Shown piece after piece: positions 3,761-61,255 of a stretch of 64,000 nucleotides of DNA (the first letter of the stretch is position 1; each line of letters begins with the position of its first letter). The stretch lies in the NCBI GenBank assembly GCA_947478465.1, contig CANJWH010000007.1, positions 10,794 through 74,793 of the forward strand. Direction: 5' to 3'. Both the position numbers and the translations under genes were made by a program. The notes under the pieces are model-generated. The model worked only from the letters and a program-made list of their open reading frames with translations, made no database searches and had not been told where the DNA came from. Source of the stretch: Bacteroidota bacterium (GTDB lineage Bacteria > Bacteroidota > Bacteroidia > SXHM01).

Positions 3761-3792
3761 AAAATCCTGCCTTTAAAGCAGGATTTTTTTTT
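3761..3792 (+). terminator. rho-independent terminator of tatA
   Basis: aaaatcctgcctttaaagcaggat followed by T9 run. Confidence 0.75.
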
Positions 3793-3807
3793 GAAATAGT
3801 AGCATTT

Positions 3808-3933
3808 CTCTACCTAACGGTCTTGTTTCTCTACCCAACTATCTTAATTCTCTACCCAACGGTCTTGTTTCTCTACCCAATAATCTTAATCCTTTACTCA
3901 ATAATCATGATTCGTTACCCAATAATCTAATTT
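3808..3933. repeat. 6 x 21 bp degenerate tandem direct repeat (CTCTACCCAAYNRTCTTRWTT), organised as two 42 bp higher-order units then decaying copies
   Basis: Direct reading: ctctacctaacggtcttgttt / ctctacccaactatcttaatt / ctctacccaacggtcttgttt / ctctacccaataatcttaatc / ctttactcaataatcatgatt / cgttacccaataatctaattt. Confidence 0.85.
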
Positions 3934-3936
3934 CTA

Positions 3937-3968
3937 GACTGAAATTAAAAATTCAGTCTGCTTTTTAT
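3937..3968 (+). terminator. terminator-like hairpin immediately after the 21 bp repeat array
   Basis: agactgaa-attaaaaa-ttcagtct followed by gcttttta. Confidence 0.5.
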
Positions 3969-20904: not shown

Positions 20905-23325
20905 TTAAAACGGATACCCGATTCCTAAATTAAAGATTACGCGTTTCATTGTAATCGGTTCGCTTACGCCAATCCAGCGTTGATTGTTTGCTTCCGGTTT
21001 TCCGGGATTGTAAATAGGGTAGGCTGCATCCATACGAACGATTAGGAAATTAAAGTCAAGTCGTGCGCCCACACCTGCGCCCAATGCAATCTCTTTGTAA
21101 AAACGTTTGATATCCATTTCAGCACCGGGGCGTTGCAGATCTTTATGAATTAGCCAGATGTTTCCTGCATCGGCAAACACAGCCATCTTGAAATACTTGT
21201 AAATATCAAAACGATACTCCACGTTCATCTCTAATTTCATATTACCAAACTGGTCAATGGAAGTTTGCAGTTGTTCAGGAAGTGAACCCGGACCAAGGTT
21301 TCGCGCTCTCCATGCACGGATACCGTTTGCACCGCCACCAAAAAAACTGGCTTCATAAGGCAATACTGAAAGATTTCCGTAAGGTGTTCCGCGCCCTGCT
21401 GCCAGACGCATAACAAAGGTGCTGCGCGAATTAATAGCAATGTAGCGCCTGATATCGAAATCAAATTTTATGTATTGCGCATAAGGAATATTGAAAACAC
21501 GGTAGCTTCCGTTTACGTCTTGCTGTGCGCCTGTTAAGCGACTGACAACCCAAGGAATATTTCCGGAGAACTCAAGGGTTGCTCTGAAATAGGTGAAGTT
21601 CTTTACCTTGTTTACTTCCTGATTATTGAAGACGTAGGAATAAACTCCTGAACTGGTAATGTGAGAAATAAAAGTATTGCGCAGAAGCCGGTCGTTGATA
21701 CCATTTATCCTTTCCAGAAAAGCTGCGCTTTCATTGTAAATGTTTACAAAGTTAATTTCAATAGGGTTGGCAGTCCAGCGTTTTTGTGCGGTTTCGCGCC
21801 AATCATAACCAAAGGTGGTGCGGAAAATGGTGCGCGTAAAATCGGGACGTTGCTGAAAATCGTACGCCAGTTTAATCTTTGTTTGCGGACGGAAATATTT
21901 GGAGACTTTTATATAGCGTGCAGCAGGAAACAAAAAGCGGGGAATGGTAAGCGAAGCCTCAGGACTTATCTGCAGGGTATTGAAGATAGGTGTCTTTTTA
22001 GAATCATCAGCATTAAAAACAACCTGTGATTCCAAACCGCCTTTTATACGCATCTCAAATGTTTCTGCGCCTCTGAAAATGTTTTTGTTCTGATAAACCA
22101 GATCAGCAAAAACTCCGGGAAAGCCGCCAGTGTTGGTTCCCTGTGCCTCAAACGAAAACGACTGACGTGGAGCCGGGGTTAGCTGCACATAGCAATCCAG
22201 TTTGTCGTTTGCTTTTTCCTCAAACTGTATGTTTATGAATTTGTAAACCTTTAAACCGGAGAGCTGTTTGTAGGTATTGTCAAGGCTTTTGGCAACATAC
22301 ATTTCTCCGTCTTTAAAGAAAACAGAACTCATCAAAAGTTTAGGATCAATGGTCCATTTTCGGTGATAGGTAAGTGAATACTTGTTATACACCAGTGTAT
22401 CGTAAGTAACAACAGAAGTGCTTTTAGGATAATACTCGGTGTTCAGATACACCTTGCCGATTTTGTAAGGACGAAATTCTTTAGGGCTGTTAGTTGTATC
22501 CGGCCGGCCGAAATCTTTTTCAGAGTTGCTTCTTATCATCAGCGTTACTTCAACCTCCCGATTGCCAATGGTAGTGTCGGCCTGAAAAACAATGTTGTCG
22601 GTAGTGAAAAAGTAATAGCCGCGGTTTTTAAGTTCTTTGGCAATGCGCTCACGTTCTTTCTGAAGAATGTCAACATCATAATTCATTCCCGGTTTTAACA
22701 ACGTGTTTAGTTTATCTGCGCTGGCTATTATCTGGTTCAGGTCGGGGTTGTAAATAGTGTAAACAATGTTGCGAACCGTGTAGGGCAAATGCGGTTTTAT
22801 GTAATAAGTAACCTTTGCTTTCTTGCGTTTATATTCAACGCTGTCGCTAATCTCGGCATTAAAGAAGCCTTTGTTCTTGAGGTAAATTTCAAATTGCTTG
22901 TGGGTACTTTGAGTAAGCGTGGAATCCAGGACTACCGGAGCTTCACCAATGCCCAACATCCATTCGCCAAAGCTTCTGCGTGCGTCTTTCGGCTCTTTGT
23001 TTTTGGCAACACGTTTTTCGTTTTTTCTGTCCTGCTTTTCTTTCAGTTCTTTTTTGCGGGCTTCCACTTTGTTAAGGTCAACCAGATTATAAACCCACAG
23101 GTGGAAACGCACAAAGCCTACAATTCTGCGGTTGGGTTTCTGGCGTATGTATTTGGTCAAATCTTCTTTATTGACCTTTCCGCTGTCGACCTCAATTTTG
23201 TTTTTTACCAGCAGGTATTCTTTGTCGCCAAGTTTGCGGGTGGCTCCGCAGGAAGCTACAAGTAAGCAGTAGGCAGTAAGCAGTAAGCAGTATGTAAAAC
23301 GTAAAAGAGTTTTTTCCTTCTCCAA
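20905..23325 (-). CDS. Omp85-family (BamA/TamA-like) outer membrane protein with POTRA repeats and surface-antigen beta-barrel; lipoprotein-type signal
   Basis: 806 aa; N-terminal ..LLVASCG lipobox; C-terminal ...NLGIGYPF terminal Phe; D15 barrel-like C-terminal half. Confidence 0.7.
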   Translation of the reverse strand: MEKEKTLLRFTYCLLLTAYCLLVASCGATRKLGDKEYLLVKNKIEVDSGKVNKEDLTKYIRQKPNRRIVGFVRFHLWVYNLVDLNKVEARKKELKEKQDRKNEKRVAKNKEPKDARRSFGEWMLGIGEAPVVLDSTLTQSTHKQFEIYLKNKGFFNAEISDSVEYKRKKAKVTYYIKPHLPYTVRNIVYTIYNPDLNQIIASADKLNTLLKPGMNYDVDILQKERERIAKELKNRGYYFFTTDNIVFQADTTIGNREVEVTLMIRSNSEKDFGRPDTTNSPKEFRPYKIGKVYLNTEYYPKSTSVVTYDTLVYNKYSLTYHRKWTIDPKLLMSSVFFKDGEMYVAKSLDNTYKQLSGLKVYKFINIQFEEKANDKLDCYVQLTPAPRQSFSFEAQGTNTGGFPGVFADLVYQNKNIFRGAETFEMRIKGGLESQVVFNADDSKKTPIFNTLQISPEASLTIPRFLFPAARYIKVSKYFRPQTKIKLAYDFQQRPDFTRTIFRTTFGYDWRETAQKRWTANPIEINFVNIYNESAAFLERINGINDRLLRNTFISHITSSGVYSYVFNNQEVNKVKNFTYFRATLEFSGNIPWVVSRLTGAQQDVNGSYRVFNIPYAQYIKFDFDIRRYIAINSRSTFVMRLAAGRGTPYGNLSVLPYEASFFGGGANGIRAWRARNLGPGSLPEQLQTSIDQFGNMKLEMNVEYRFDIYKYFKMAVFADAGNIWLIHKDLQRPGAEMDIKRFYKEIALGAGVGARLDFNFLIVRMDAAYPIYNPGKPEANNQRWIGVSEPITMKRVIFNLGIGYPF

Positions 23326-23415
23326 TTTCTATTCTCTAATTTCTAACTTCTAATCTCCAGCCTCCAACTTCTAAATCTGCAATCAACAATCAGCCCAAAA
23401 GTATAGCTTTGCGCT

Positions 23416-24183
23416 GTGCTAACCAATTCACAAATTAAACACATCCTTTCGTTGAAGCAGAAGAAATTCCGCACCGAACATCAACAGTTCGTTGTTGAAG
23501 GCGTGAAGGTGGTGAAGGAGTTACTCGCATCGCCTTACAAGGTAGATGCGGTGTATGCTCTGGGCGAAATTGCAGATGAACTTGCAGCAGTGTCTTCCGT
23601 TGTTCCAACCATCATTACCGAAATGCAATTGCAGAAGATGAGCAATCTGGATACACCTAATAATGTGCTGGCCCTGGCTTCCATTCCGCAATCATCATTC
23701 AACTTTCTACAGGTTAAAGACAAACTATCACTTGCGTTAGATACCATCAACGACCCCGGAAACCTTGGCACCATTATCCGCACGGCAGCATGGTTTGGTA
23801 TGGATACCATCATCTGTTCACCCAACACAACCGATGCCTGGAGCCCGAAAGCAGTGCAGGCTACCATGGGTGCATTGTTCAGAACAAACGTTGTGTATGC
23901 CGATTTGAAAAAAGTAGTGGAAGAATACAACAGTGCTCATGTTCCTGTGTATGCTACCACGCTTGACGGAACGGATATTTACAAAACAACCTTATCACCA
24001 AACGGATTGATTGTTATTGGCAGCGAAAGTCATGGTGTATCGCCTGACTTGCTTGCTCTGATTAATAAAAATCTTCTTATTCCTTCTTTCTCATCAGGTG
24101 CTGCAGAATCGCTGAATGCTGCGGTGGCTGCGGGGGTGGTTTGCTCGGAGTTTATGAGGAAGTCCGTAGTCGGTAGTCGGTAG
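23416..24183 (+). CDS. TrmH/SpoU-family RNA 2'-O-methyltransferase
   Basis: 255 aa; LDTINDPGNLGTIIRTAAWFG and C-terminal IVIGSESHGVS motifs; stop codon lies inside a palindromic element. Confidence 0.85.
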   Translation: MLTNSQIKHILSLKQKKFRTEHQQFVVEGVKVVKELLASPYKVDAVYALGEIADELAAVSSVVPTIITEMQLQKMSNLDTPNNVLALASIPQSSFNFLQVKDKLSLALDTINDPGNLGTIIRTAAWFGMDTIICSPNTTDAWSPKAVQATMGALFRTNVVYADLKKVVEEYNSAHVPVYATTLDGTDIYKTTLSPNGLIVIGSESHGVSPDLLALINKNLLIPSFSSGAAESLNAAVAAGVVCSEFMRKSVVGSR

Positions 24184-24225
24184 TCCGTGGACAATGGACT
24201 ACGGTCTATGGACTCTTCTTCCTAC
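24165..24225. repeat. palindromic element (divergent REP-like) spanning trmH stop; shared bidirectional terminator for convergent genes
   Basis: agtccgtagtcggtagtcggtagtccgtgg-acaa-tggactacggtctatggact; core cgtagtc/gactacg as in REP-like family. Confidence 0.5.
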
Positions 24226-25586
24226 TCTTTCACAAACTTTTTACTCACCACTTCTGTGCCGTTGGTAAGGCTGAGGAAATAAATGCCGGAGTTGAGTTGA
24301 CTTACATCAATTGACAATGGATAATTGATAATGGATAGTTGCTGAACAAGCTGCCCTTGTGCGTTTATAATATTTAATTGTGCGTTCTTTAGGTTTAGGT
24401 CGGTATTAATTGTTAAGGTTTTGGTTGCGGGGTTGGGGAAGAGGTTGAGATTTGTTTTTGTATCAGCTTCTCTAATACTTAACATATAATCATAATAATA
24501 GGCAGTAGTGTAAATATTTTCAAGATTGTCACCGTTTTGAAACAACTCAGTCAGGATATAATTGTTGTCGTCAAATTCATAGGTACGTTTATTTGCAATA
24601 TGCCATACCTCGTCAGTCATGTATTCAGATAAAATACCTGTATTGTTATTGTTTGAATCATAAGTGTAGGTTGCTCGGTTGTCTGACACCCAAATTGTAT
24701 CATAGAATGATTCTGATAAACCAGTTAGTTGATTATTGTTTGAGTCGTAAGTGTTAATAAACCGATGATTGTCTCTCCAAATTGAATCGGACCAGAATTG
24801 ATATAACTCAATTGTTTTATTATTGTTGTTATCATAGCTGAAGATATATCTGTCGCCATTGAGCCAGCTTGTATCGTTCCACATATAGTTGATATAGCCT
24901 GTTGTGTTATTGTTTCCATCATAGGTGTATGTGGACATACTGTTATTTACCCATGCATTATTTATCCATTCCTGACCAGTTGAACTTATTAAGTTGTTGT
25001 TAATGTCATAGTTTGATAATCCTAAGGTGCTGTTTATCCACTCTGTTCCGGTAGATGTTTTAGTTAACATACTTAGCATGTTTCCATTTATATCATAAGT
25101 AATATAAACCTGAGAACCGCTGAACATTGAATCAGACCCTGAAATCCATTCTGTGAATACTACATTATTGTTTGTGTCATATGCGATATTGTATTCACTG
25201 TCTGTTCTCCAGCTTTCATTGAACCAGGTTTGTGATATTTTATTCAAAAGATTGCCGTTAAGACTGTGGTCATAAAGATCGAGGGTTGAATTTACCCAAA
25301 CACTATCTTGCCACATTTCGCGAAAATCCATTGCAAGATGCTGGTTTGAATCGTAGCTTAGGCTTTGTTTTGATGTGTTAACCCAATTGTTATTTTGCCA
25401 CATAAACTCTATATGGGTAATCAGTTTCCCCTCAGTGTTGTATTGATAAATGGTTTTTGAAGCGTAATTCCAATCGTTTGATGTAGAGTTCCAATTCCAT
25501 TGATAGGTGCTGTCTAGCAGGCTTTCTTGTGCAAAACTATTGGAGGTAAACAGTATGGCAAGTAGAAGTAGAATATGCTTTTTCAT
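24222..25586 (-). CDS. T9SS (Por) C-terminal sorting domain cargo protein with ~11 YD-like repeats (YxYDxNNN...W, ~29 aa period)
   Basis: 454 aa; signal peptide; repeats IFSYDNNNNKTIE, YTYDSNNNNTGIL etc.; C-terminal LNLFPNPATKTLTINTDL...GIYFLSLTNGTEVVSKKFVKE. Confidence 0.85.
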   Translation of the reverse strand: MKKHILLLLAILFTSNSFAQESLLDSTYQWNWNSTSNDWNYASKTIYQYNTEGKLITHIEFMWQNNNWVNTSKQSLSYDSNQHLAMDFREMWQDSVWVNSTLDLYDHSLNGNLLNKISQTWFNESWRTDSEYNIAYDTNNNVVFTEWISGSDSMFSGSQVYITYDINGNMLSMLTKTSTGTEWINSTLGLSNYDINNNLISSTGQEWINNAWVNNSMSTYTYDGNNNTTGYINYMWNDTSWLNGDRYIFSYDNNNNKTIELYQFWSDSIWRDNHRFINTYDSNNNQLTGLSESFYDTIWVSDNRATYTYDSNNNNTGILSEYMTDEVWHIANKRTYEFDDNNYILTELFQNGDNLENIYTTAYYYDYMLSIREADTKTNLNLFPNPATKTLTINTDLNLKNAQLNIINAQGQLVQQLSIINYPLSIDVSQLNSGIYFLSLTNGTEVVSKKFVKE

Positions 25587-25663
25587 TTGTGTTTTTTACA
25601 AATGTCAGACTTTGCAGTACTGCTGTTACACTAAATTTTGGCATTATTATACACTTCCAAAAA

Positions 25664-25793
25664 CAAAAACACCCCACTTCTCAGCAGGGTGTTTTTACTA
25701 TTGTCATTGCGATTTTTTTTCATGCAAAGTTCGCAAAGGCTCATCTCTAACCTTTGCGCTCTTTGCGTGAAAGGCTGCTCTTTCCTTCCTACT
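25664..25793. repeat. copy 1 of duplicated ~130 bp intergenic element (hairpin AAAAACACCC..GGGTGTTTTT + TCGCAAAGG/CCTTTGCGA inverted repeat + CTTTGCG direct repeats)
   Basis: Near-identical to 27784-27938; spurious + strand ORFs run through both copies. Confidence 0.85.
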
Positions 25794-27753
25794 CTTTCAC
25801 AAACTTTTTACTCACTACTTCTGTGCCGTTGGTAAGGCTCAGGAAATAAATGCCGGAGTTGAGTTGGCTGATGTCAATTGACAATGGATAATTGATAATG
25901 GATAGTTGCTGAACAAGCTGCCCTTGTGCATTTAGAATAGTCAGTTTTGTGTTCTTTAAGTCAGTATTAAGTGTTAAGGTGTTGGTGGCGGGGTTGGGGT
26001 ATATTGTTAAATCATTGATACTGTTTTCAGAAATTCCATTAATACATGGAGGCCAAAACTTTATAATAAGTTCTATTATTTGTGAAGTAGCACTGCAGTC
26101 AATGCTGTTATGTACAACAACTGAATAGGCACCCGAAATCAACGGACAGTAGGTTTGTTCAATCGCATCAATAATTGGTTCGCCATTCAAATACCATTGA
26201 TACGAATAAAAATGACTGACATATAATTCATCACCAATCTGAATGACAGGGTTCAATACCGCCTGATACGTTTGAACGGTATTTGATAAAAACCAGCAAC
26301 TGTCATTAACCTGCACGCTTACTGAAAATACTCCGCTGGTGTCTACAGTTATGCTTTGTGTTGTATCACCTGTTGACCAGAGGTATGCATCAAAGCCATC
26401 TTCTGCTGTAAGCACAATACTATCACCATTACAAAACAATGTATTCCCTGATACAGCAACTGTTGGAACAACAGCAAAGTCAGCACAAGTTGGCGGTGGT
26501 TCAATTAACAGCGAATCTGAGGTGAATACTCCAACTGTATCATTGCCTTTGCGGTAAGCCACAAGGTTTTCATACGTACCATATTCAAAGAACCCAAAAG
26601 AAAAACTTGTTTGACCTAAACCTTCCTTAATAACCATGTTTGATATTGGTCCGTTGTACTGTCTGAAAATAACTTCAGGGATTGTATCAATAATAGTTAA
26701 GCCATACGAATCACCAGTCTGCGTTTGTCCGAAATATTTGGTAAACAAACCCAACGTATCGTATTCTGTTTTTGTAATATCGTAGAATTCTGCTCCAAAC
26801 CCGCCTGATGAATAAACAATATCCTCGGTTCCTGCATAAGTCTTTATTACACTATCAAGGCTGAAAAACTGATTGCAATAGTTATTGCCGAAATGTCTGA
26901 CAGAATCAATAAAAACTATATCCCTGTTAATTATACCATAATATACTCCACCTGATGTAATAGGATTACCATGAAACCAGGTCGTTTTTCCATAACCTTG
27001 AATATGATAAATAAGGGTATCGGCATTTTGGGTTTTCTGAGTAACCTCATATTTATTCTTATAATAGGACACATCAAATATTCCGGAATTAGATGTTTCA
27101 CCCCAGTATTCAAACATGTCACCCACATCAAAATTGAAAAAGTCTTTCATAGTTGGAGGACTAAATCCTAATTGCTGTGTTTCAATACCTGAAAGATAAT
27201 AATGTTGCCCTGAGCCTAATGAAAAAGGAAATTGCAACAGCCCATTATTTTTTGAAAGTATAAGAGTATCGCCACTTGAAAGTGCGATTGTTTTTATTGA
27301 ATCGGTATTGCCAAGAACATTAGCGAAGGAAAGCGAAATAACTTGAGCAGTAACAGATGGCAGAGTGCTGAACTGCCATGTTTCATTCAAGGAAGCATAA
27401 GTTTGTATTATCCAGTCAGCAGTATCAGAAAAAGTAACTGTTCCGTTTGGTGAAACAATCATTTCCTTTTGTAAGAACTGTGGCTGATTATATTTTCCGT
27501 AACAGGTATCGCAATTGATAGGTCCGCCAACAATGGTTGTACAATTTTCGCAGGCTACACGGTTTAGAAAAAATATACTATCACTATTGAGGGATGAAGA
27601 AGAATCTACTTTAATGGTGTAAACGGGAAGTGTAGAATTCTCTAATGTAAAATGATATGATTCATAGGAGTTAACAGGCTGCCATTGAGCAGAACATTCC
27701 GCAACGAAACAGAATGTACTAATCAAGAGAAGAAGTTTTTTCATTCGCAGCAT
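25789..27753 (-). CDS. T9SS C-terminal sorting domain cargo protein (Ig-like/beta-rich secreted protein)
   Basis: 654 aa; signal peptide; C-terminal NPATNTLTLNTDLKNTKLTILNAQGQLVQQLSIINYPLSIDISQLNSGIYFLSLTNGTEVVSKKFVKE; last ~200 nt near-identical to 24222-24420. Confidence 0.85.
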   Translation of the reverse strand: MLRMKKLLLLISTFCFVAECSAQWQPVNSYESYHFTLENSTLPVYTIKVDSSSSLNSDSIFFLNRVACENCTTIVGGPINCDTCYGKYNQPQFLQKEMIVSPNGTVTFSDTADWIIQTYASLNETWQFSTLPSVTAQVISLSFANVLGNTDSIKTIALSSGDTLILSKNNGLLQFPFSLGSGQHYYLSGIETQQLGFSPPTMKDFFNFDVGDMFEYWGETSNSGIFDVSYYKNKYEVTQKTQNADTLIYHIQGYGKTTWFHGNPITSGGVYYGIINRDIVFIDSVRHFGNNYCNQFFSLDSVIKTYAGTEDIVYSSGGFGAEFYDITKTEYDTLGLFTKYFGQTQTGDSYGLTIIDTIPEVIFRQYNGPISNMVIKEGLGQTSFSFGFFEYGTYENLVAYRKGNDTVGVFTSDSLLIEPPPTCADFAVVPTVAVSGNTLFCNGDSIVLTAEDGFDAYLWSTGDTTQSITVDTSGVFSVSVQVNDSCWFLSNTVQTYQAVLNPVIQIGDELYVSHFYSYQWYLNGEPIIDAIEQTYCPLISGAYSVVVHNSIDCSATSQIIELIIKFWPPCINGISENSINDLTIYPNPATNTLTLNTDLKNTKLTILNAQGQLVQQLSIINYPLSIDISQLNSGIYFLSLTNGTEVVSKKFVKE

Positions 27754-27783
27754 ATTTCCCTCAAAGCTACTAAATCCCTTCTA

Positions 27784-27938
27784 ACAAAAACACCCCACTT
27801 CTCAGCAGGGTGTTTTTACTATTGTCATTGCGATTTTTTTTCATGCAAAGATCGCAAAGGCTCATCTCTAACCTTTGCGAACTTTGCGAAAATCTTTGCG
27901 CCCTTTGCGTGAAAGGCTGCTCCTACCAGCACACCATA
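27784..27938. repeat. copy 2 of duplicated intergenic element (with 4 CTTTGCG repeats)
   Basis: acaaaaacaccccacttctcagcagggtgtttttactattgtcattgcgattttttttcatgcaaag.tcgcaaaggctcatctctaacctttgcg shared with copy 1. Confidence 0.85.
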
Positions 27939-28156
27939 CTCACCACCTCACTCAGCGGGCCAACACCTTTTGAGTTTACTGCATAGAAATAGAAGTAATA
28001 AGTAACATCGTGTTTCAGGTTTTGGAAATGATTTACACGCTGGTCGGTAAAATCAAGTTGTACACTGGCGGGTAAGTGGTTTTGCAATGGCTGGTGTATG
28101 GTTTACATACTATTCTTCTACTTAAAACCGAGGGGGAATTACGGTGAGGGTAACTT

Positions 28157-28340
28157 GAGTTACGTTTGAAGTTTGGGAGTTATGTTTGAAGTTTTGGAGT
28201 TACGTTTGAAGTTTTGGAGTTATGTTTGAAGTTATGGAGTTACGTTTGAAGTTATGGAGTTACGTTTGAAGTTTTGGAGTTATGTTTGAAGTTATGGAGT
28301 TACGTTTGAAGTTTTGGAGTTTCGTTTGAAGTTTTGGAGT
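28157..28340. repeat. 9 x 20 bp tandem repeat GAGTTAYGTTTGAAGTTWTG
   Basis: Perfect 20 bp phasing from 28157; units alternate C/T at position 7 and T/A at 17. Confidence 0.9.
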
Positions 28341-28660
28341 TTCGTTTGTGCTCACCTCATCTCCGTTTGTGCTACCTGAGTTCAATTTGGTTGAACCATA
28401 GCTCAGTTTGTGCTCTCCTCATCTCCGTTTGTGCTGCCTGAGTTCCGTTTGATTGAACCGAAACACGTTTGTACTCACCTCATCTCCGTTTGTGCTGCCT
28501 GGGTTCGGTTTGGTTGAACCGAAACAAGTTTGTACTCACCTCATCTCCGTTTGTGCTGCCTGGGTTCCGTTTGGTTGAACCGTAACTCTGTTTGGCCTTA
28601 CCTCATCTCCGTTTGTACTCACCTGAGTTCCGTTTATGCTCAGCTGAGTTCCGGTTGACT
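28340..28660. repeat. 5 x ~61 bp tandem repeat (CTCACCTCATCTCCGTTTGTGCTGCCTGRGTTCCGTTTGGTTGAACCGAAACANGTTTGTA); contains the progenitor of the adjacent 20-mer
   Basis: Anchor ctcacctcatctccgtttgt recurs at 28351, 28413, 28474, 28535, 28597 (periods 61-62). Confidence 0.9.
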
Positions 28661-28875
28661 TTGCTGCTTTAAAGGTTGTGCATTCCTTATGTGTTCTATG
28701 TGTCTATGTGGTAAAAAAACTCCGCGCCTTTGCGCCTCAGCGGCAAAAGAAATCCAGCCCTCTTATGGAATTACTCCCCCCTTTGCATCTTATAATCGGA
28801 GCACACAATAAAAATAAAAGTTCTCCGTTATCATACTAAGGTCTCACCATTTATTCATCTTAAACAAAACAAACC

Positions 28876-29703
28876 ATGAAAATCAATTTAATCAGCGAGT
28901 GGGGTAATGTTGTTTCAAACGTGCGCAACAACATAGTTTTTGAAAACCGTAACCAGGCCTATGGAGCCTATTTCATACGCAGGGAGTATCCGCGCACTAT
29001 GTTCTTTTCGCTTTTTGTTACGGTATCGGTTATTGTACTGGGTGTAGCAGGGTTAAAGTTGTCGAGTTATTTGTCTGCGAAGATTGTGGAGGTAATTGTG
29101 CCCGTAACCAACACACCCATTGAAATCATTACACCCGTTGATTTAAAGCCCCTGGAAACACCTCCGGTAAAAGTAGAGCCTATGAAAACTCCTCCACCAC
29201 CAAAAGGAACCGAGTTTACCGCACCCGTGGTTAGTGATGACAAAGAAAAGGTTGAAGAAAAGCCTTTTTCTCAGGAAGAAATAAAACCCGGAAGAGTAGA
29301 CGGTGTGGATACAACCGATGTGGAATTTATCCCTGAAACACCTAAAGGTAACGGACCTATAGTAGCTGTTGATACAGTTGAAAAAGTGTTGGACTTCGTT
29401 GATGTCAATCCTTCCTTTCCCGGAGGAGAAGCAAAGATGTATGAGTTCATTTCTCAGAAAACAAAATACCCGTCACAGGAAAAAGAGAACGGAATTTCAG
29501 GAACGGTGTATGTTAGTTTTACAGTTGATAAAGCCGGCAAAATAAAAGATGTTGTTATAGACCGAGGTGTAACCCACGGCCCCAATCTTGCAAAAGAGGC
29601 GCAACGTGTAATAAGCCTTATGCCCGAATGGAAACCCGGTATCTACAAAGGACAAACGGTAGCAGTACGTTACCGTATGCCAATCAGTTTTGTGTTGAGG
29701 TAA
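28876..29703 (+). CDS. tonB: energy transducer TonB (C-terminal TonB domain)
   Basis: 275 aa; N-terminal TM, Pro-rich linker, C-terminal FPGGEAKMYEFI...GTVYVSFTVDKAGKIKDV...PISF TonB-C fold. Confidence 0.8.
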   Translation: MKINLISEWGNVVSNVRNNIVFENRNQAYGAYFIRREYPRTMFFSLFVTVSVIVLGVAGLKLSSYLSAKIVEVIVPVTNTPIEIITPVDLKPLETPPVKVEPMKTPPPPKGTEFTAPVVSDDKEKVEEKPFSQEEIKPGRVDGVDTTDVEFIPETPKGNGPIVAVDTVEKVLDFVDVNPSFPGGEAKMYEFISQKTKYPSQEKENGISGTVYVSFTVDKAGKIKDVVIDRGVTHGPNLAKEAQRVISLMPEWKPGIYKGQTVAVRYRMPISFVLR

Positions 29704-30769: not shown

Positions 30770-32441
30770 ATCCTTCTATTCGGTTGTGGTAAAAAAATAA
30801 AAGATTAAAATCTTCCGACATGATAAAGCCGTCTTTCGTTTTATACAAAGGACGCTTGGCATCATACATTCCCAGATTTTTTATTCCTGTCTCAATCACT
30901 TTATCAATCTCGGGAATCTCCAGTTCGTGATACAAATGAACTTCACCATTGGCTGCCATCTCGCGCAGGCGGTCAAGCAGGCGCGAAACACCGTTGGTAA
31001 ATTCAAGATACGTTAGTTTCTGATCTTCTTCCGGCAAACGAAGCACCGCATAAATATCTAATTTTTTGTGGCGTTTACGAATTAATTCAAACGCCACAAA
31101 AGCAACCACATGACTTGCAAAAACACGGCTCTCGGAATGAAAACGTTTTACAATCTCATCGCCCAGCATCTTGGTGTATTCAGCATCACGCTGCGAGTCG
31201 CGGGTAAAAACTCCGTTGGTCATAAAGTAGCGGCTGATGTCAATCTTCTCGTTGTTTTTGCCGATGCTGTTTCCATCCTGATCAACAGGATTTCCAAACA
31301 GGTCAATGCACTTACCAAACGAGATAGACATCTCCGATGATTTGGTAAAAAACTTAATCATGAACTTGGCCAGCTTATAGGATGTTGAGTAATCATCGTT
31401 CTCGCGGAAGTAGTGTTGCTGACCAACCTGCTTCAGATGCTCGTCAATAAGGCTGGGAGCTTCCAGTACAAAGTTGTAGTTGAATACCACCGGAATAACA
31501 AATATTTTGGTTGCTTTTTCCTGGTCTTTTAAAAAGTGCAGACGCTGCGCTTCCATGGCAGTTCCAAGCAAACCAAGTTTCAATTTTTTTTCAATAGCAC
31601 CGGAGCGCGAACGGGTTCCTCCCGGAAAAAACAAACTGTTGCAACCGCGCAGCATTCCAATAGTAGAATAGGTCTTCAGCGTTTCCAGATAAATCATATT
31701 CTTTTTTCTGCGGTCAACTTTATAAGCTCCCAGGCGGCTCATAAAGAATGCAAGAATTCCAATTCCGAAAAGATTTAAACCTGCACCGTAAAGAAACGGA
31801 CGCAAACCAAGGGATTGAATAGCCCAACCAATTAAAATAGAATCAAGGTTACTGAAATGCGTTGGAACCATAACCAGCGTTCCTTTCTTTGCAAGTGTGC
31901 GGATATGGTCTAAATCACCCTGCAACCTTATCTTTTCGTGAAGATTGTGACGCGTTTTCCAGAAACGTGAAATTCCTTTGCCTTCTGAGGCATTCAGCAA
32001 ACGTGCAAAACCAAACGTAGTAGCTTCCTTTGCAAAATTATAAGCTGTGGGATTGAAAAAACCTGCTATCTCTTCGGTATAGCGGTCAATAATACTTTCA
32101 AGAATTTGGTCTTCATTTAGGTCAGGAGTTTTTTCATTCTCCGGACTTAATTTCAACAACTTCTTTTTTACCCCTTCCCAAAACGGTCCTTCGTCTTTTT
32201 TATCTGCTGCCCAGGCATTTGTTTTTACACGAATGCGCTCCATGTAATAGGTCTTAGCTAATTCTTCGTTTAAGCCTTGTGTAGTTTTGGTCTGCTCTTT
32301 TACTGCAATAAACGCAGCTTCTTTAACCTGCTTTAGAAATTCGTCACGGTCTTGCGTAAGCTTATAAATAGGCCATGTATTTACATCAGGAAACAGCGGC
32401 TCATAAAGCCATCCTTTTCGTGTATGTTTTTGTTCAGACAA
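30747..32441 (-). CDS. glycerol-3-phosphate / lysophospholipid acyltransferase (PlsB/PlsC-like, HXXXXD family); TTG start; 3' end overlaps gpsA by 23 nt
   Basis: 564 aa; PTHFSNLD (HX4D) and FFPGGTRSRSG motifs. Confidence 0.75.
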   Translation of the reverse strand: MSEQKHTRKGWLYEPLFPDVNTWPIYKLTQDRDEFLKQVKEAAFIAVKEQTKTTQGLNEELAKTYYMERIRVKTNAWAADKKDEGPFWEGVKKKLLKLSPENEKTPDLNEDQILESIIDRYTEEIAGFFNPTAYNFAKEATTFGFARLLNASEGKGISRFWKTRHNLHEKIRLQGDLDHIRTLAKKGTLVMVPTHFSNLDSILIGWAIQSLGLRPFLYGAGLNLFGIGILAFFMSRLGAYKVDRRKKNMIYLETLKTYSTIGMLRGCNSLFFPGGTRSRSGAIEKKLKLGLLGTAMEAQRLHFLKDQEKATKIFVIPVVFNYNFVLEAPSLIDEHLKQVGQQHYFRENDDYSTSYKLAKFMIKFFTKSSEMSISFGKCIDLFGNPVDQDGNSIGKNNEKIDISRYFMTNGVFTRDSQRDAEYTKMLGDEIVKRFHSESRVFASHVVAFVAFELIRKRHKKLDIYAVLRLPEEDQKLTYLEFTNGVSRLLDRLREMAANGEVHLYHELEIPEIDKVIETGIKNLGMYDAKRPLYKTKDGFIMSEDFNLLFFYHNRIEGYGLAKYI

Positions 32442-32467
32442 GGAAGTTGATTAAGGTAATTGGTTGA

Positions 32468-32884
32468 TTAGGGTAATTAAGGTAATTGGGTAAAATTATT
32501 ACTATTCTTCTTTACGTCTTTTCAGGTATGCAATGTAACCATTCAATAGTTTTAAAATTAAATCGTAATCAGTTTCAAATTCTTTAAATATCATTTCATC
32601 AATGTATCCTTGGTCAAGAGCGCAAATCAAATGGTCTAAAGTTTCGGTTAATGAACCTCTTGCCTGTCTGCAAAACTGTATGTTTTCCTGATAATGAAAT
32701 CGCCCTTTACCCTCTGCAATGTTTGCTGTTACTGAACGTGATGATCTTATGATTTGGTCGGTGAGTTTATAGTTTTCTTCTTTAGGAAATTGTTTGGTCA
32801 GCAAAGAAATTTTATTTCTGAATTTTCTGCCTTCCTTCCAAACTTCCAATCCCCTGAAATCTTCCATTACTCAATTACCCTAAT
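32468..32884. mobile_element. putative MITE-like cassette: four-helix-bundle protein gene bounded by perfect 11 bp terminal inverted repeats TTAGGGTAATT (32468-32478) / AATTACCCTAA (32874-32884)
   Basis: IRs read directly; surrounding ggtaatt/taattgg direct repeats. Confidence 0.35.
32502..32867 (-). CDS. four-helix-bundle protein (23S rRNA intervening-sequence protein family)
   Basis: 121 aa; ...EGKGRFHYQENIQFCRQARGSLTETLDHL... matches the four-helix-bundle family. Confidence 0.85.
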   Translation of the reverse strand: MEDFRGLEVWKEGRKFRNKISLLTKQFPKEENYKLTDQIIRSSRSVTANIAEGKGRFHYQENIQFCRQARGSLTETLDHLICALDQGYIDEMIFKEFETDYDLILKLLNGYIAYLKRRKEE

Positions 32885-32896
32885 AACCTAATCTAC

Positions 32897-33400
32897 TTAA
32901 TTAACTTTTTTTATCTTAAAAGACCATGTAATTAAAAAACGCGAAACTTCAGTTCCGTCAGGCATGGTGCCAACGCTTTCAATTGTTACCGAAACTTTTT
33001 CTTTTGTTGCAATTGCCTGATCAATTGCCGCAAAAATTTTTGAGCCTTCTGTGCAAGTGAAGGTAGTTAGTTTATCTGCTTTTTTCGAGAACCCTCCTTC
33101 AACTTTAACAACCAACATTCCCATGTTGGCATTACAGTTTTCTATTGCCAGCAAAGCTAAAACACCTGTTGACATTTCGGCTGCCATTGCCTGTGCTGCA
33201 AAATAAATACTCTGAAAAGGGTTTTGGCTTCTCCATCCGAAAGGCAGCGTTACTTCACAATTATCAACATCTAATTTTTTAATGTTCAGTCCGCAGAAAA
33301 AGGCTGCGGGAAGTTTTATCAGAAGAAAAAGATTAAACAGGGAATAGCTTAGAAATTGTTTGCGTTTTTTCTCTGCTTTTTGGTTTAGTGTAATAGACAT
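32897..33400 (-). CDS. hotdog-fold thioesterase-like protein (DUF4442/YiiD C-terminal-like)
   Basis: 167 aa; single N-terminal TM-like segment then hotdog-like core. Confidence 0.5.
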   Translation of the reverse strand: MSITLNQKAEKKRKQFLSYSLFNLFLLIKLPAAFFCGLNIKKLDVDNCEVTLPFGWRSQNPFQSIYFAAQAMAAEMSTGVLALLAIENCNANMGMLVVKVEGGFSKKADKLTTFTCTEGSKIFAAIDQAIATKEKVSVTIESVGTMPDGTEVSRFLITWSFKIKKVN

Positions 33401-60589: not shown

Positions 60590-61255
60590 CTATCTTGTTC
60601 TTTCCTGAGCTATGTCACTCATTGCTCCGTATCCGAGGGGGCCAAGTGCCCTTACCCGAAACTGATAAATGTGACCACTGACGAGATTTGCCGCCAAAAA
60701 CCGGGATGCCGTAACGGATGCAAGATGTTTCCATTCTCCGTTTCCTGCAGTCGGTGTTGGCATTCCGGGAGTTATTCCCGTATTGCCGTCACCGGTGTAT
60801 CCCAGATCTTTATACTCAAGCTCATAAACTCTGGATGCATTGATACGATTCCAACTCAAATCTATTTCTCCTGCAGAAAGAGTGGCTATTGCCACCAGGT
60901 TCTGCACCTGAGTCATCTCGGTTTTTGGACCGCGCTGCTTCTTTATTTCGAAACCTGAACTTAAAATCATATCAGCATCTCCATTGCTTACGCTTTGAAT
61001 ATGGGCAGCAAGTTGTTTGATCAGTATCCTCAGCTCCTTAGCTCTCAGATTTCTGGCGATTATCAGATTGCGGTCAAAGGCACCTGCTGCTGTTATAGCA
61101 TTGCTCAGGGCGGTAATGGCCGCAAAAAAGGTCACCAGGTCTGGAATGGGGCCGGGGAAGTTTGCATTACCGGTCAGTTTACTATGAATAAGTATTGCTT
61201 TTTGAAGCAGCTTATCATAATTCTGTCCGGAAACTCCAATTTTTACAGTTGCCAT
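60590..61255 (-). CDS. hypothetical protein, alpha-helical N-terminal half plus C-terminal fibronectin type III-like domain; GC-richer than surroundings
   Basis: 221 aa; C-terminal EIDLSWNRINASRVYELEYKD...GHIYQFRVRALGPLGYG FN3 signature. Confidence 0.5.
   Translation of the reverse strand: MATVKIGVSGQNYDKLLQKAILIHSKLTGNANFPGPIPDLVTFFAAITALSNAITAAGAFDRNLIIARNLRAKELRILIKQLAAHIQSVSNGDADMILSSGFEIKKQRGPKTEMTQVQNLVAIATLSAGEIDLSWNRINASRVYELEYKDLGYTGDGNTGITPGMPTPTAGNGEWKHLASVTASRFLAANLVSGHIYQFRVRALGPLGYGAMSDIAQERTR

Follow-up and report, generated by a model that had tools for sequence, protein, structure and literature searches.

Positions 28157-28666 of the 64,000-nucleotide stretch of Bacteroidota DNA analyzed here (the window) form a single in-phase tandem array of 510 bp, built from 25 abutting units of 20-21 bp with a mean period of 20.4 bp. 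The most plausible reading assigns it to a known kind of bacterial repeat rather than to a new RNA gene or protein-binding system. It is probably a young, lineage-specific, non-coding higher-order minisatellite (VNTR) in unconstrained DNA. Support for a minisatellite comes from (i) its satellite-like anatomy, with centres that are homogeneous and edges that are degenerate, along with chimeric units and a higher-order organization; (ii) the occurrence of 510- and 449-bp alleles that differ by a clean recombination of copies 3 and 4; (iii) the lack of conservation, the array being absent from some related loci (L006, L015, L229) and replaced in others (L009, L016, L023); (iv) its position in decayed DNA, abutting a gene remnant of 48 codons; (v) the presence of arrays in other gaps of the window and in distant Bacteroidota loci; and (vi) the negative outcome of RNA, MITE and replicon tests.

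Structure of the array

TRF reported a 20-bp unit with 9.6 copies at 28157-28348 (93% matches, score 321) and a 61-bp unit with 4.7 copies at 28344-28635 (87% matches, score 407). Both registers were reproduced by a second repeat search of the window. For dissection into units, the array sequence was cut at each GTTTG-like anchor. The GTTTG spacing was 20-21 bp across the array, and two homogenised domains were distinguished, with the following parts:

28117-28156 (+): two degenerate left-edge units, in-register copies at 63% and 77% identity
28157-28336 (+): domain A, nine units of exactly 20 bp (GAGTTAYGTTTGAAGTTWTG), with TAnnTTTG in eight of the nine (TRF, unit dissection, motif scan)
28337-28582 (+): four higher-order copies of 61-62 bp each (TRF, unit dissection)
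28583-28666 (+): diverged fifth higher-order copy and degenerate terminal unit (unit dissection)

Within domain A, the autocorrelation at lag 20 was 0.93. The 61-mer is a trimer composed of B (21 bp, ..GTTTGTRCTCACCT), C (20 bp, CATCTCCGTTTGTGCTGCCT) and D (20 bp, GRGTTCCGTTTGGTTGAACC), and the junction unit at 28337-28357 is a chimera of the 5′ half of A and the 3′ half of B. The higher-order copies share 82-95% mutual identity; copies 3 and 4 are 95% identical, and the fifth copy reaches 70-77% against the others. Sub-units A-D match one another at only 9-11 of 20 positions.

A preliminary description of this DNA had listed nine units of 20 bp and five of 61 bp, which was right though incomplete, as the full array comprises 25 units. 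Its view of the array as hierarchical was borne out. It had also proposed that the 20-mer derives from an internal segment of the 61-mer, corresponding to D; A matches D and B equally well (11/20 each), with the common positions largely confined to the shared core and GAGTT, and this derivation was not upheld. We agree with its exclusion of CRISPR for want of spacers: the units abut, with no unique spacers between repeats, and the sole match to a CRISPR-DR family of Rfam was sub-threshold (20 bits, gathering score 40) and located outside the array.

All nine matches to the domain-A 20-mer and all four matches to the 20-nt C sub-unit fell within the array, and neither sequence was matched in 100 shuffles. 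Neither period (20 or 61 bp) is divisible by 3, and no ORF crossing the array exceeds 42 aa, the longest one lacking a Pfam match; the array is therefore non-coding. Its + strand is rich in G+T, with a GC skew of up to +0.64. The palindrome GGTTGAACC recurs at 61-bp intervals, in the D units; neither it nor the GGTAAAAAAA motif was enriched elsewhere in the window. A heptamer sub-structure of the 20-mer was considered and rejected (autocorrelation at lags 8 and 12, none at 7).

The gap and its gene remnant

The array lies within a divergent gap of 1122 bp (27754-28875). The features in and next to this gap are:

25789-27753 (-): protein of 654 aa to the left of the gap, carrying a T9SS C-terminal sorting domain (Pfam PF18962)
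27762-27769 (-): -7 box TAGCTTTG, located 16 nt ahead of the start codon (ATG) of the gene for the 654-aa T9SS cargo protein (motif scan with the general consensus given below)
27783-27888 (-): spacer that accompanies the T9SS paralogues and was duplicated together with them, at 97% identity to 25662-25767 (blastn)
27926-28069 (-): pseudogene remnant, the last 48 codons of an uncharacterised fn3-like protein of ~232-235 aa (phmmer, tblastn, weak fn3 Pfam match)
28683-28755 (+): two elements of the form 'word-word-GGTAAAAA', in the stretch that separates the array from the conserved tonB block (read from the sequence)
28762-28875 (+): block upstream of tonB (promoter/leader), kept in all relatives with or without an array (blastn breakpoints)
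28876-29703 (+): right neighbour, a TonB-family protein of 275 aa (Pfam PF03544)

A T9SS paralogue of the 654-aa gene is encoded at 24222-25586. Pfam confirmed the flanks named earlier: the left side has two proteins with T9SS C-terminal domains, and the right side has a TonB_C protein. The duplicated spacer follows each paralogue and holds a terminator-like hairpin (27786-27817) as well as a hairpin with the CTTTGCG word (27845-27887). On the other side of the array, TRF detected an 8-bp repeat with 2.7 copies at 28688-28710.

The gap had been called gene-free and devoid of ORFs of 60 aa or more. Neither statement held strictly: the 3′ remnant of a truncated gene abuts the array, and a 75-aa ORF starting with TTG (27685-27912, +) overlaps the left edge of the gap. 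The ORF of the remnant itself is just 54 aa long (27923-28087, -). In a phmmer search of 1.84 billion representatives, it was 83% identical to P0131, to which it aligned at residues 188-235, and P0136, P0139, P0186, P0194, P0201 and P0262 aligned to it likewise by their C-termini; the tblastn E-value of the remnant was 7e-24. A word-indexed homologue search with the 54-aa remnant gave no match, the family being found by exhaustive phmmer. The P0131-like family had no Pfam match above threshold and no NCBIfam or PHROG assignment. At full length, the gene would continue through 28070-28630 with the 187 missing codons (561 bp), a stretch now taken up by the array. The left flank of the array was also considered as a possible third T9SS paralogue in decay; neither of the two paralogues matched the gap in tblastn, and the remnant belongs to a different family.

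Copy-number alleles

The TonB protein of the window is encoded, residue for residue, on contigs of several metagenome assemblies and in the NCBI MAG GCA_947471795.1. The 510-bp array was identical in four of these loci (L001, L002, L004 and L018), which stem from different samples and two projects; L001 is 100% identical to the window over 20.8 kb. Three other samples (L003, L005 and L228) carry an allele of 449 bp, exactly one 61-bp unit shorter, which defines one further feature:

28460-28582 (+): copy-number-variable segment (L003, L005 and L228 compared with the window, L001, L002, L004 and L018)

In the 449-bp allele, one recombinant copy replaces copies 3 and 4, with the crossover inside their 40-bp identical stretch. 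L003 and L005 otherwise show no difference from the window over 7.5 and 5 kb, respectively, and L228 additionally has a TAT-to-TAG change in codon 29 of tonB. As the 510- and 449-bp alleles were the two seen, the locus is not hypermutable, which counts against the minisatellite. Among the three options offered in the preliminary description (protein-binding iterons, a repetitive ncRNA, or a contingency/satellite locus), the last fits best with this 61-bp copy-number difference between otherwise SNP-free assemblies.

All sources of the array are short-read metagenome assemblies, the 449-bp allele is limited to MEGAHIT k141 contigs, and one scaffold (L019) contains 100 Ns within domain A, with flanks that abut exactly. 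That the array or its copy number is an artefact of short-read assembly is nevertheless hardly credible: every 141-mer is made unique by the unit variants, the identical 510-bp array was recovered from different samples and two projects, and the same 449-bp junction occurs in three samples, one of which has an independent tonB SNP. Because the unit variants make long k-mers unique, the 61-bp polymorphism is probably real.

We infer the following course for the origin of the minisatellite. Replication slippage or unequal homologous exchange would first have multiplied a unit of ~20 bp into head-to-tail copies, and these would have diverged afterwards. A block of three units (61 bp) may then have been amplified ~5× on one side, and a single unit 9× on the other, with copy number still shifting in 61-bp steps through exchange between adjacent 61-mers. 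The site of growth would be the truncated 5′ side of a pseudogenised fn3-like gene, in an island of gene gain and gene loss upstream of tonB. We further infer that the array has no sequence-specific function; any effect would be indirect, with the array setting how far the tonB control region lies from the DNA upstream of it and shaping the local geometry in between. Taken as a minisatellite, it is of use chiefly as a strain marker (four or five copies of the 61-mer) for an uncultured, freshwater-type population of Bacteroidia.

The locus in related genomes

Relatives were chosen by TonB homology as a graded series, and their contigs were compared with the window. Homology breakpoints and the relatives' gene maps delimited a hypervariable region that includes the array:

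24160-28730 (no strand): hypervariable island of 4.6 kb, from the stop codon of the SpoU methylase to the tonB block

In blastn comparisons with L006, L009, L015, L016, L020, L022 and L023, homology to the window ends just past the stop codon of the SpoU-methylase gene (~24160) and resumes at 28685-28762. Between SpoU and tonB, the relatives were organized as follows:

L006-8 (95% DNA and 97% TonB identity): 177 bp, no genes, no array
L020 (91% TonB identity): other genes, no array
L009-14 (85-89% DNA identity): 454-aa gene, and a gap of 923 bp whose array has 13 units, each exactly 21 bp long (core CTAACTAG, higher-order periods of 42/84 bp)
L015 (83% TonB identity): 263 bp, no array
L016-17 (70% TonB identity): no extra gene, 742-bp gap with a CCGCT-core array (21 bp × 4.2)
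L023-24 (70% TonB identity): three other genes and an array of 41 bp × 6.5
L229 (55% TonB identity): 254 bp, no array

Island and array are thus both absent from the closest relative, L006. The short, empty SpoU-tonB gap is probably ancestral; the island and the arrays would be derived and turn over within a few per cent divergence. Within ~5% divergence, the locus varies between empty and 4.6 kb of secreted-protein genes plus a 0.5-kb array, an example of the rapid turnover of non-coding DNA next to a conserved housekeeping gene.

The arrays of the relatives and their flanks did not resemble the window's array in blastn comparisons, and they lack the TAnnTTTG motif. L009 retains only residues 2-25 of the P0131-like family on the minus strand, 50 bp from its own array; in that lineage the array therefore lies upstream of the start of the gene. 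In four lineages, arrays with periods of about two helical turns, or multiples thereof, occupy the same spot. Such recurrence could reflect selection for a periodic structure, and it is a point against the minisatellite.

Conserved core and promoter-like boxes

The GTTTG core (unit positions 8-12) was kept in 24-25 of the 25 units, closely followed in conservation by positions 2, 5 and 16. At the other positions, the similarity among sub-units A-D is close to that expected by chance. The five columns with the highest conservation lie next to one another, for which a combinatorial estimate (20 of 15504 ways) gives p ~0.001. This constancy amid diverged filler is not predicted by simple neutral decay and counts against the minisatellite. 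In the units, 5′ and 3′ halves seem to have been combined in mosaic fashion, with the joint at the core. Exchange may preferentially take place in the register of the core, a drive-like explanation; another option is that selection acts on the core as a binding or promoter-like site.

The sigma-A promoter consensus of Bacteroidota consists of TTG/TTTG at -33 and TAnnTTTG at -7, spaced ~19 nt (17-23) apart. A motif scan with this consensus found eight perfect -7 boxes in domain A, all on the + strand and facing tonB, and most of the remaining units read T[C]nnTTTG. The eight boxes are a further point against the minisatellite. Upstream of these boxes, no TTTG was present at 16-23 nt and no TTG at 17-22 nt; a single box has a TTG at 23 nt. 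A separate scan of the gap detected neither a sigma-70 promoter nor an intrinsic terminator, in a model that does not cover Bacteroidota promoters.

It is conceivable, if rather doubtful, that the array is a cis-regulatory element, in which phased sigma-A -7-like boxes or transcription factor sites would be aimed at tonB and copy number would tune expression (a contingency promoter array). Besides the boxes themselves, the conservation of the core far above the filler, the co-orientation of all units toward tonB, whose start is 210 bp away, and the 61-bp polymorphism point in this direction. The tonB block conserved among the relatives contains no canonical -7 box (motif scan), and tandem minisatellite elements with promoter activity have been described in P. 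gingivalis (PMC4596501). Against such a role, no -33 element is suitably spaced from the boxes, and relatives without an array, or with motif-free arrays, retain the same tonB and leader. The motif was spotted post hoc, and it amounts to one independent event because the units are copies. Furthermore, with 20.4 bp per unit and a helix of 10.5 bp, the cores drift by ~20 degrees per unit, so that across the array they do not all lie on one face of the helix. No regulator gene is adjacent.

We consider it unlikely, yet worth stating, that arrays of about two turns are selected as such in this lineage, and perhaps across Bacteroidota. A constant short core (here GTTTG, similar to a -7 box) at 20-22-bp spacing with free filler would then provide an architectural platform, or one for RNA polymerase or nucleoid proteins, upstream of tonB; at least four lineages would each have rebuilt it at this spot, independently and from unrelated sequences. 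If the core and the recurrent periodicity of ~2 turns do reflect selection, they would represent an unrecognised class of structural or promoter-like repeats in Bacteroidota, and the locus offers natural alleles for testing this idea. The recurrence of sequence-unrelated arrays of about two turns at one locus is the main residual curiosity.

Replicon, RNA and mobile-element readings

Plasmid iterons (R6K, pPS10, RK2, F, P1) are direct repeats of ~20 bp in 3-9 copies with a conserved core. The array resembles them in the length of its direct repeats (within the 17-22 bp of iterons), their spacing of about two helical turns, and the conserved core with a variable remainder; the palindrome found in the D units every 61 bp would also suit iterons, or a partition centromere, that an integrated plasmid or element had left behind. 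Such an origin is extremely improbable. In contrast to iterons, the array has no adjacent rep gene, no AT-rich unwinding element and no DnaA boxes, its 25 units far exceed a typical iteron set, and it sits in a chromosomal island of secreted-protein genes. Up to 10 kb to the left and right, the gene maps of the window and the related loci contained no gene of the rep, par, integrase or mobilisation kind, the neighbourhood encoding an amino-acid permease, Omp85, SpoU, T9SS cargo, TonB, GpsA and an acyltransferase. Parti­tion centromeres of the sopC/parC type have parA/parB-type genes next to them, which the array does not. DnaA boxes occurred at chance level in the window and not at all in the gap, and blastn of 27889-28760 against plasmids and phages gave no match. 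The iteron option of the preliminary description thus found no support (no rep/par gene, no DnaA-box cluster). An oriC was likewise dismissed, as DnaA boxes were not enriched.

A repetitive ncRNA encoded by the array is very unlikely. The candidate would be a CA-rich transcript of the minus strand, running through the remnant to the hairpin at 27786-27817 and acting as a protein or RNA sponge. The strong strand asymmetry, with a G+T-rich + strand, and the terminator-like hairpin located downstream on the minus strand would fit such a transcript, and low predicted structure would be in line with a sponge that works by single-strand binding. However, the hairpin is accounted for by the duplication of the paralogues, the motif scan gave no promoter motif for it on the minus strand, and the array is not conserved even in the relative with 95% identity. 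Rfam 15 gave no match at gathering score in the window, and only chance-level matches at E ≤10 for 27700-28900. RNA folding of 28100-28700 was no better than for dinucleotide shuffles on either strand (z = +2.17 for the + strand, +0.89 for the - strand). The ncRNA suggested earlier, when read as a structured one, thus finds no backing in Rfam or in folding.

It is quite unlikely that a non-autonomous mobile element similar to the BrickBuilt/PgRS MITEs of P. gingivalis entered the DNA between the T9SS genes and tonB, with the array as its minisatellite core. In that species, spacer-less arrays of 22, 23 and 41 nt are known, two of them inside MITEs (PMC4596501). BrickBuilt contains a spacer-less tandem array of 23 nt with up to 22.8 copies, is always intergenic and spans up to 991 nt; several of its copies adjoin T9SS-CTD genes, others the gene of a TonB-dependent receptor and haem-uptake genes (hmuY) (PMC4596501). 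BrickBuilt and PgRS/MITE464 thus share with the present array the phylum, the spacer-less arrangement (their units are 23 or 41 nt, with up to ~23 copies), the intergenic position, a similar total size and the proximity to T9SS-CTD genes (PMC4596501). In addition, the flank words CCTTTGCG and CGCAAAGG resemble the ends of IS5-type inverted repeats. Unlike BrickBuilt, the array is not bracketed by IS5-like terminal inverted repeats (GAGACCTTTGCA...TGCAAAGGTCTC) enclosing leader, array and tail: a search of 27754-28875 for terminal inverted repeats returned matches between A/T runs only. The CTTTGCG hairpin belongs to the spacer that was duplicated with the T9SS paralogues, and the apparent 'leader' on the left flank is the gene remnant and not the leader of a MITE. 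There is no common leader or tail, and the sequences are unrelated to those of BrickBuilt/PgRS. Nor was a second copy found in the collections searched. The array units had none in the 64-kb window or the related loci, the A and C units had no match in viral contigs, and the plasmids and phages were negative as stated above. In the JGI metagenomes, the exact domain-A dimer had no match, and none of the matches listed for the periodic CGTTTG pattern (at least 120) was related to the array.

Comparison with known repeats

The minisatellite agrees best with bacterial minisatellite or VNTR loci, such as those used in MLVA typing and the mycobacterial MIRU-VNTR. Like these, it consists of non-coding, intergenic units of tens of bp (at least 10 bp) arranged head to tail without spacers; its copy number differs between near-identical strains, according to short-read data, and it is absent or different in related species. 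It departs from them in its two-level organization, its constant 5-bp core and unrelated filler, in occurring at a single locus in the collections searched, and in being known from metagenome assemblies alone. Eukaryotic higher-order satellites and core minisatellites (e.g. the Jeffreys core) comprise monomers amplified as multimers, with a short core in diverged units. The array shares with them the amplified multimers, the homogeneous centre and degenerate edges, and the core common to diverged units, but it is bacterial and only 0.5 kb long.

Heptamer arrays have been reported from intergenic regions of Flavobacteriia and other Bacteroidetes; they are missing from the same gap in close relatives, and a link to gene rearrangement was suggested by the author (PMC4679880). 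Our array is likewise a long intergenic direct repeat that is missing from the same region in close relatives. It differs from the heptamer arrays in its unit of 20-21 bp, compared to 7 bp, and in having no internal 7-bp periodicity. A general enrichment of tandem repeats has been noted for prokaryotic intergenic DNA (PMC12418385).

Two further repeats were present in long gaps of the window itself, namely six units of exactly 21 bp between two terminator-like hairpins (3804-3936) and tracts of 7 and 21 bp (23261-23382). Repeat periods were also surveyed in 80 distant loci (870 kb), all from Bacteroidota, with a TonB identity of at most 40% among the matches listed. Outside long ORFs, 49 tandem arrays were detected, whose smallest periods cluster at 7, 11, 14 and 21-23 bp; 13 of the 15 arrays with a period of 18-30 bp fell at 21-23 bp. 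The earlier remark that such arrays are unusual in bacterial chromosomes was hence overstated, given the 22-, 23- and 41-nt arrays of P. gingivalis (PMC4596501) and the common periods of 21-22 bp in the surveyed loci. Arrays inside ORFs mostly had periods that are multiples of 3.

Presence/absence islands

Comparison with the related loci L006, L009, L015, L016, L020, L023, and L229 showed that the stretch from the SpoU methylase gene to tonB (window 24160-28730) is a hypervariable island. Three lineages have an empty interval of 177-263 bp, others carry differing sets of T9SS-cargo and hypothetical genes, and both edges of the island are sharp homology breakpoints. A second, small presence/absence island was noted at window 32436-32904, with the following gene:

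32502-32867, '23S rRNA-intervening sequence protein' gene (121 aa)

This gene is found in the window and in the near-identical locus L018. It is missing from L006, L009, L015, L016, L020, L022, and L023, in all of which the alignment to the window jumps over 32436-32904.

Truncated remnants of an uncharacterised family of ~235-aa fn3-like proteins (P0131, P0194, and others) were also detected, both in the window and in L009:

window 27926-28069 (-), C-terminal 48 aa
L009 5297-5368 (-), N-terminal residues 2-25

Judged from sequence similarity, a 221-aa ORF at window 60590-61255 may be a distant paralogue of this family (tblastn E = 0.005, plus a weak fn3 match).

Conservation and variation at tonB

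A block of ~115 bp immediately 5′ of tonB (window 28762-28875) is kept by every relative, even where TonB identity falls to 55%. This block contains a potential stem (ACGGAG...CTCCGT), lacks a canonical TAnnTTTG box (the Bacteroidota -7 promoter consensus), and has no match in Rfam; it could represent a leader or regulatory RNA.

Two further observations concern tonB in near-identical loci. In L228 (ERZ27263780), which carries the 449-bp allele of the main array, codon 29 of tonB is changed from TAT to the nonsense codon TAG, and the gene caller therefore returned a 234-aa product (P0006). L018 is identical to the window across ~12.8 kb except for two patches, located by comparison with window 28750-29500 and 22750-23500. 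The first covers central tonB, so that the TonB of L018 is just 93% identical to the window protein. The second lies in the Omp85 5′ region. These patches suggest recombination imports or diversifying selection on TonB.

Short repeats and tandem tracts

Recurrent elements were noted in which a 7-8-nt word, present two or three times, is followed by GGTAAAAAAA or has inverted copies ahead of it, which form a hairpin:

window 27829-27912
window 25662-25767
window 28683-28755
L023 5776-5870
gaps of L009, L016, and L015

Their architecture is constant across loci while the words vary (CTTTGCG, CTATGTG, CTTAGTG, and CACAGAG; roughly CTNNGYG). Their polarity (hairpin, then A-run) does not match an intrinsic terminator.

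A second tandem array, at window 3804-3936, consists of six units of exactly 21 bp with the core TACCCAAY, and its alternating filler creates a 42-bp higher order. It is flanked by two terminator-like hairpins (3764-3793 and 3935-3967), with a 113-aa ORF upstream. Heptamer-based tracts occupy the divergent Omp85/SpoU gap (window 23261-23395), comprising AGTAAGC x 4.6 and ~11 units of the TTCTCCA/ATTTCTA type. L018 has a divergent counterpart of the segment 23250-23500 here, with 73 mismatches per 250 bp. A further tract was noted:

window 24161-24185, AGTCGGT x 3.6, at the SpoU stop

Tandem-repeat periods were surveyed in 80 distant genomes (L025-L104), all of them Bacteroidota. Inside ORFs, periods were mostly multiples of 3; outside long ORFs, periods of 7, 11, 14, and 21-23 bp were markedly favoured, together with the multiples 44 and 66.
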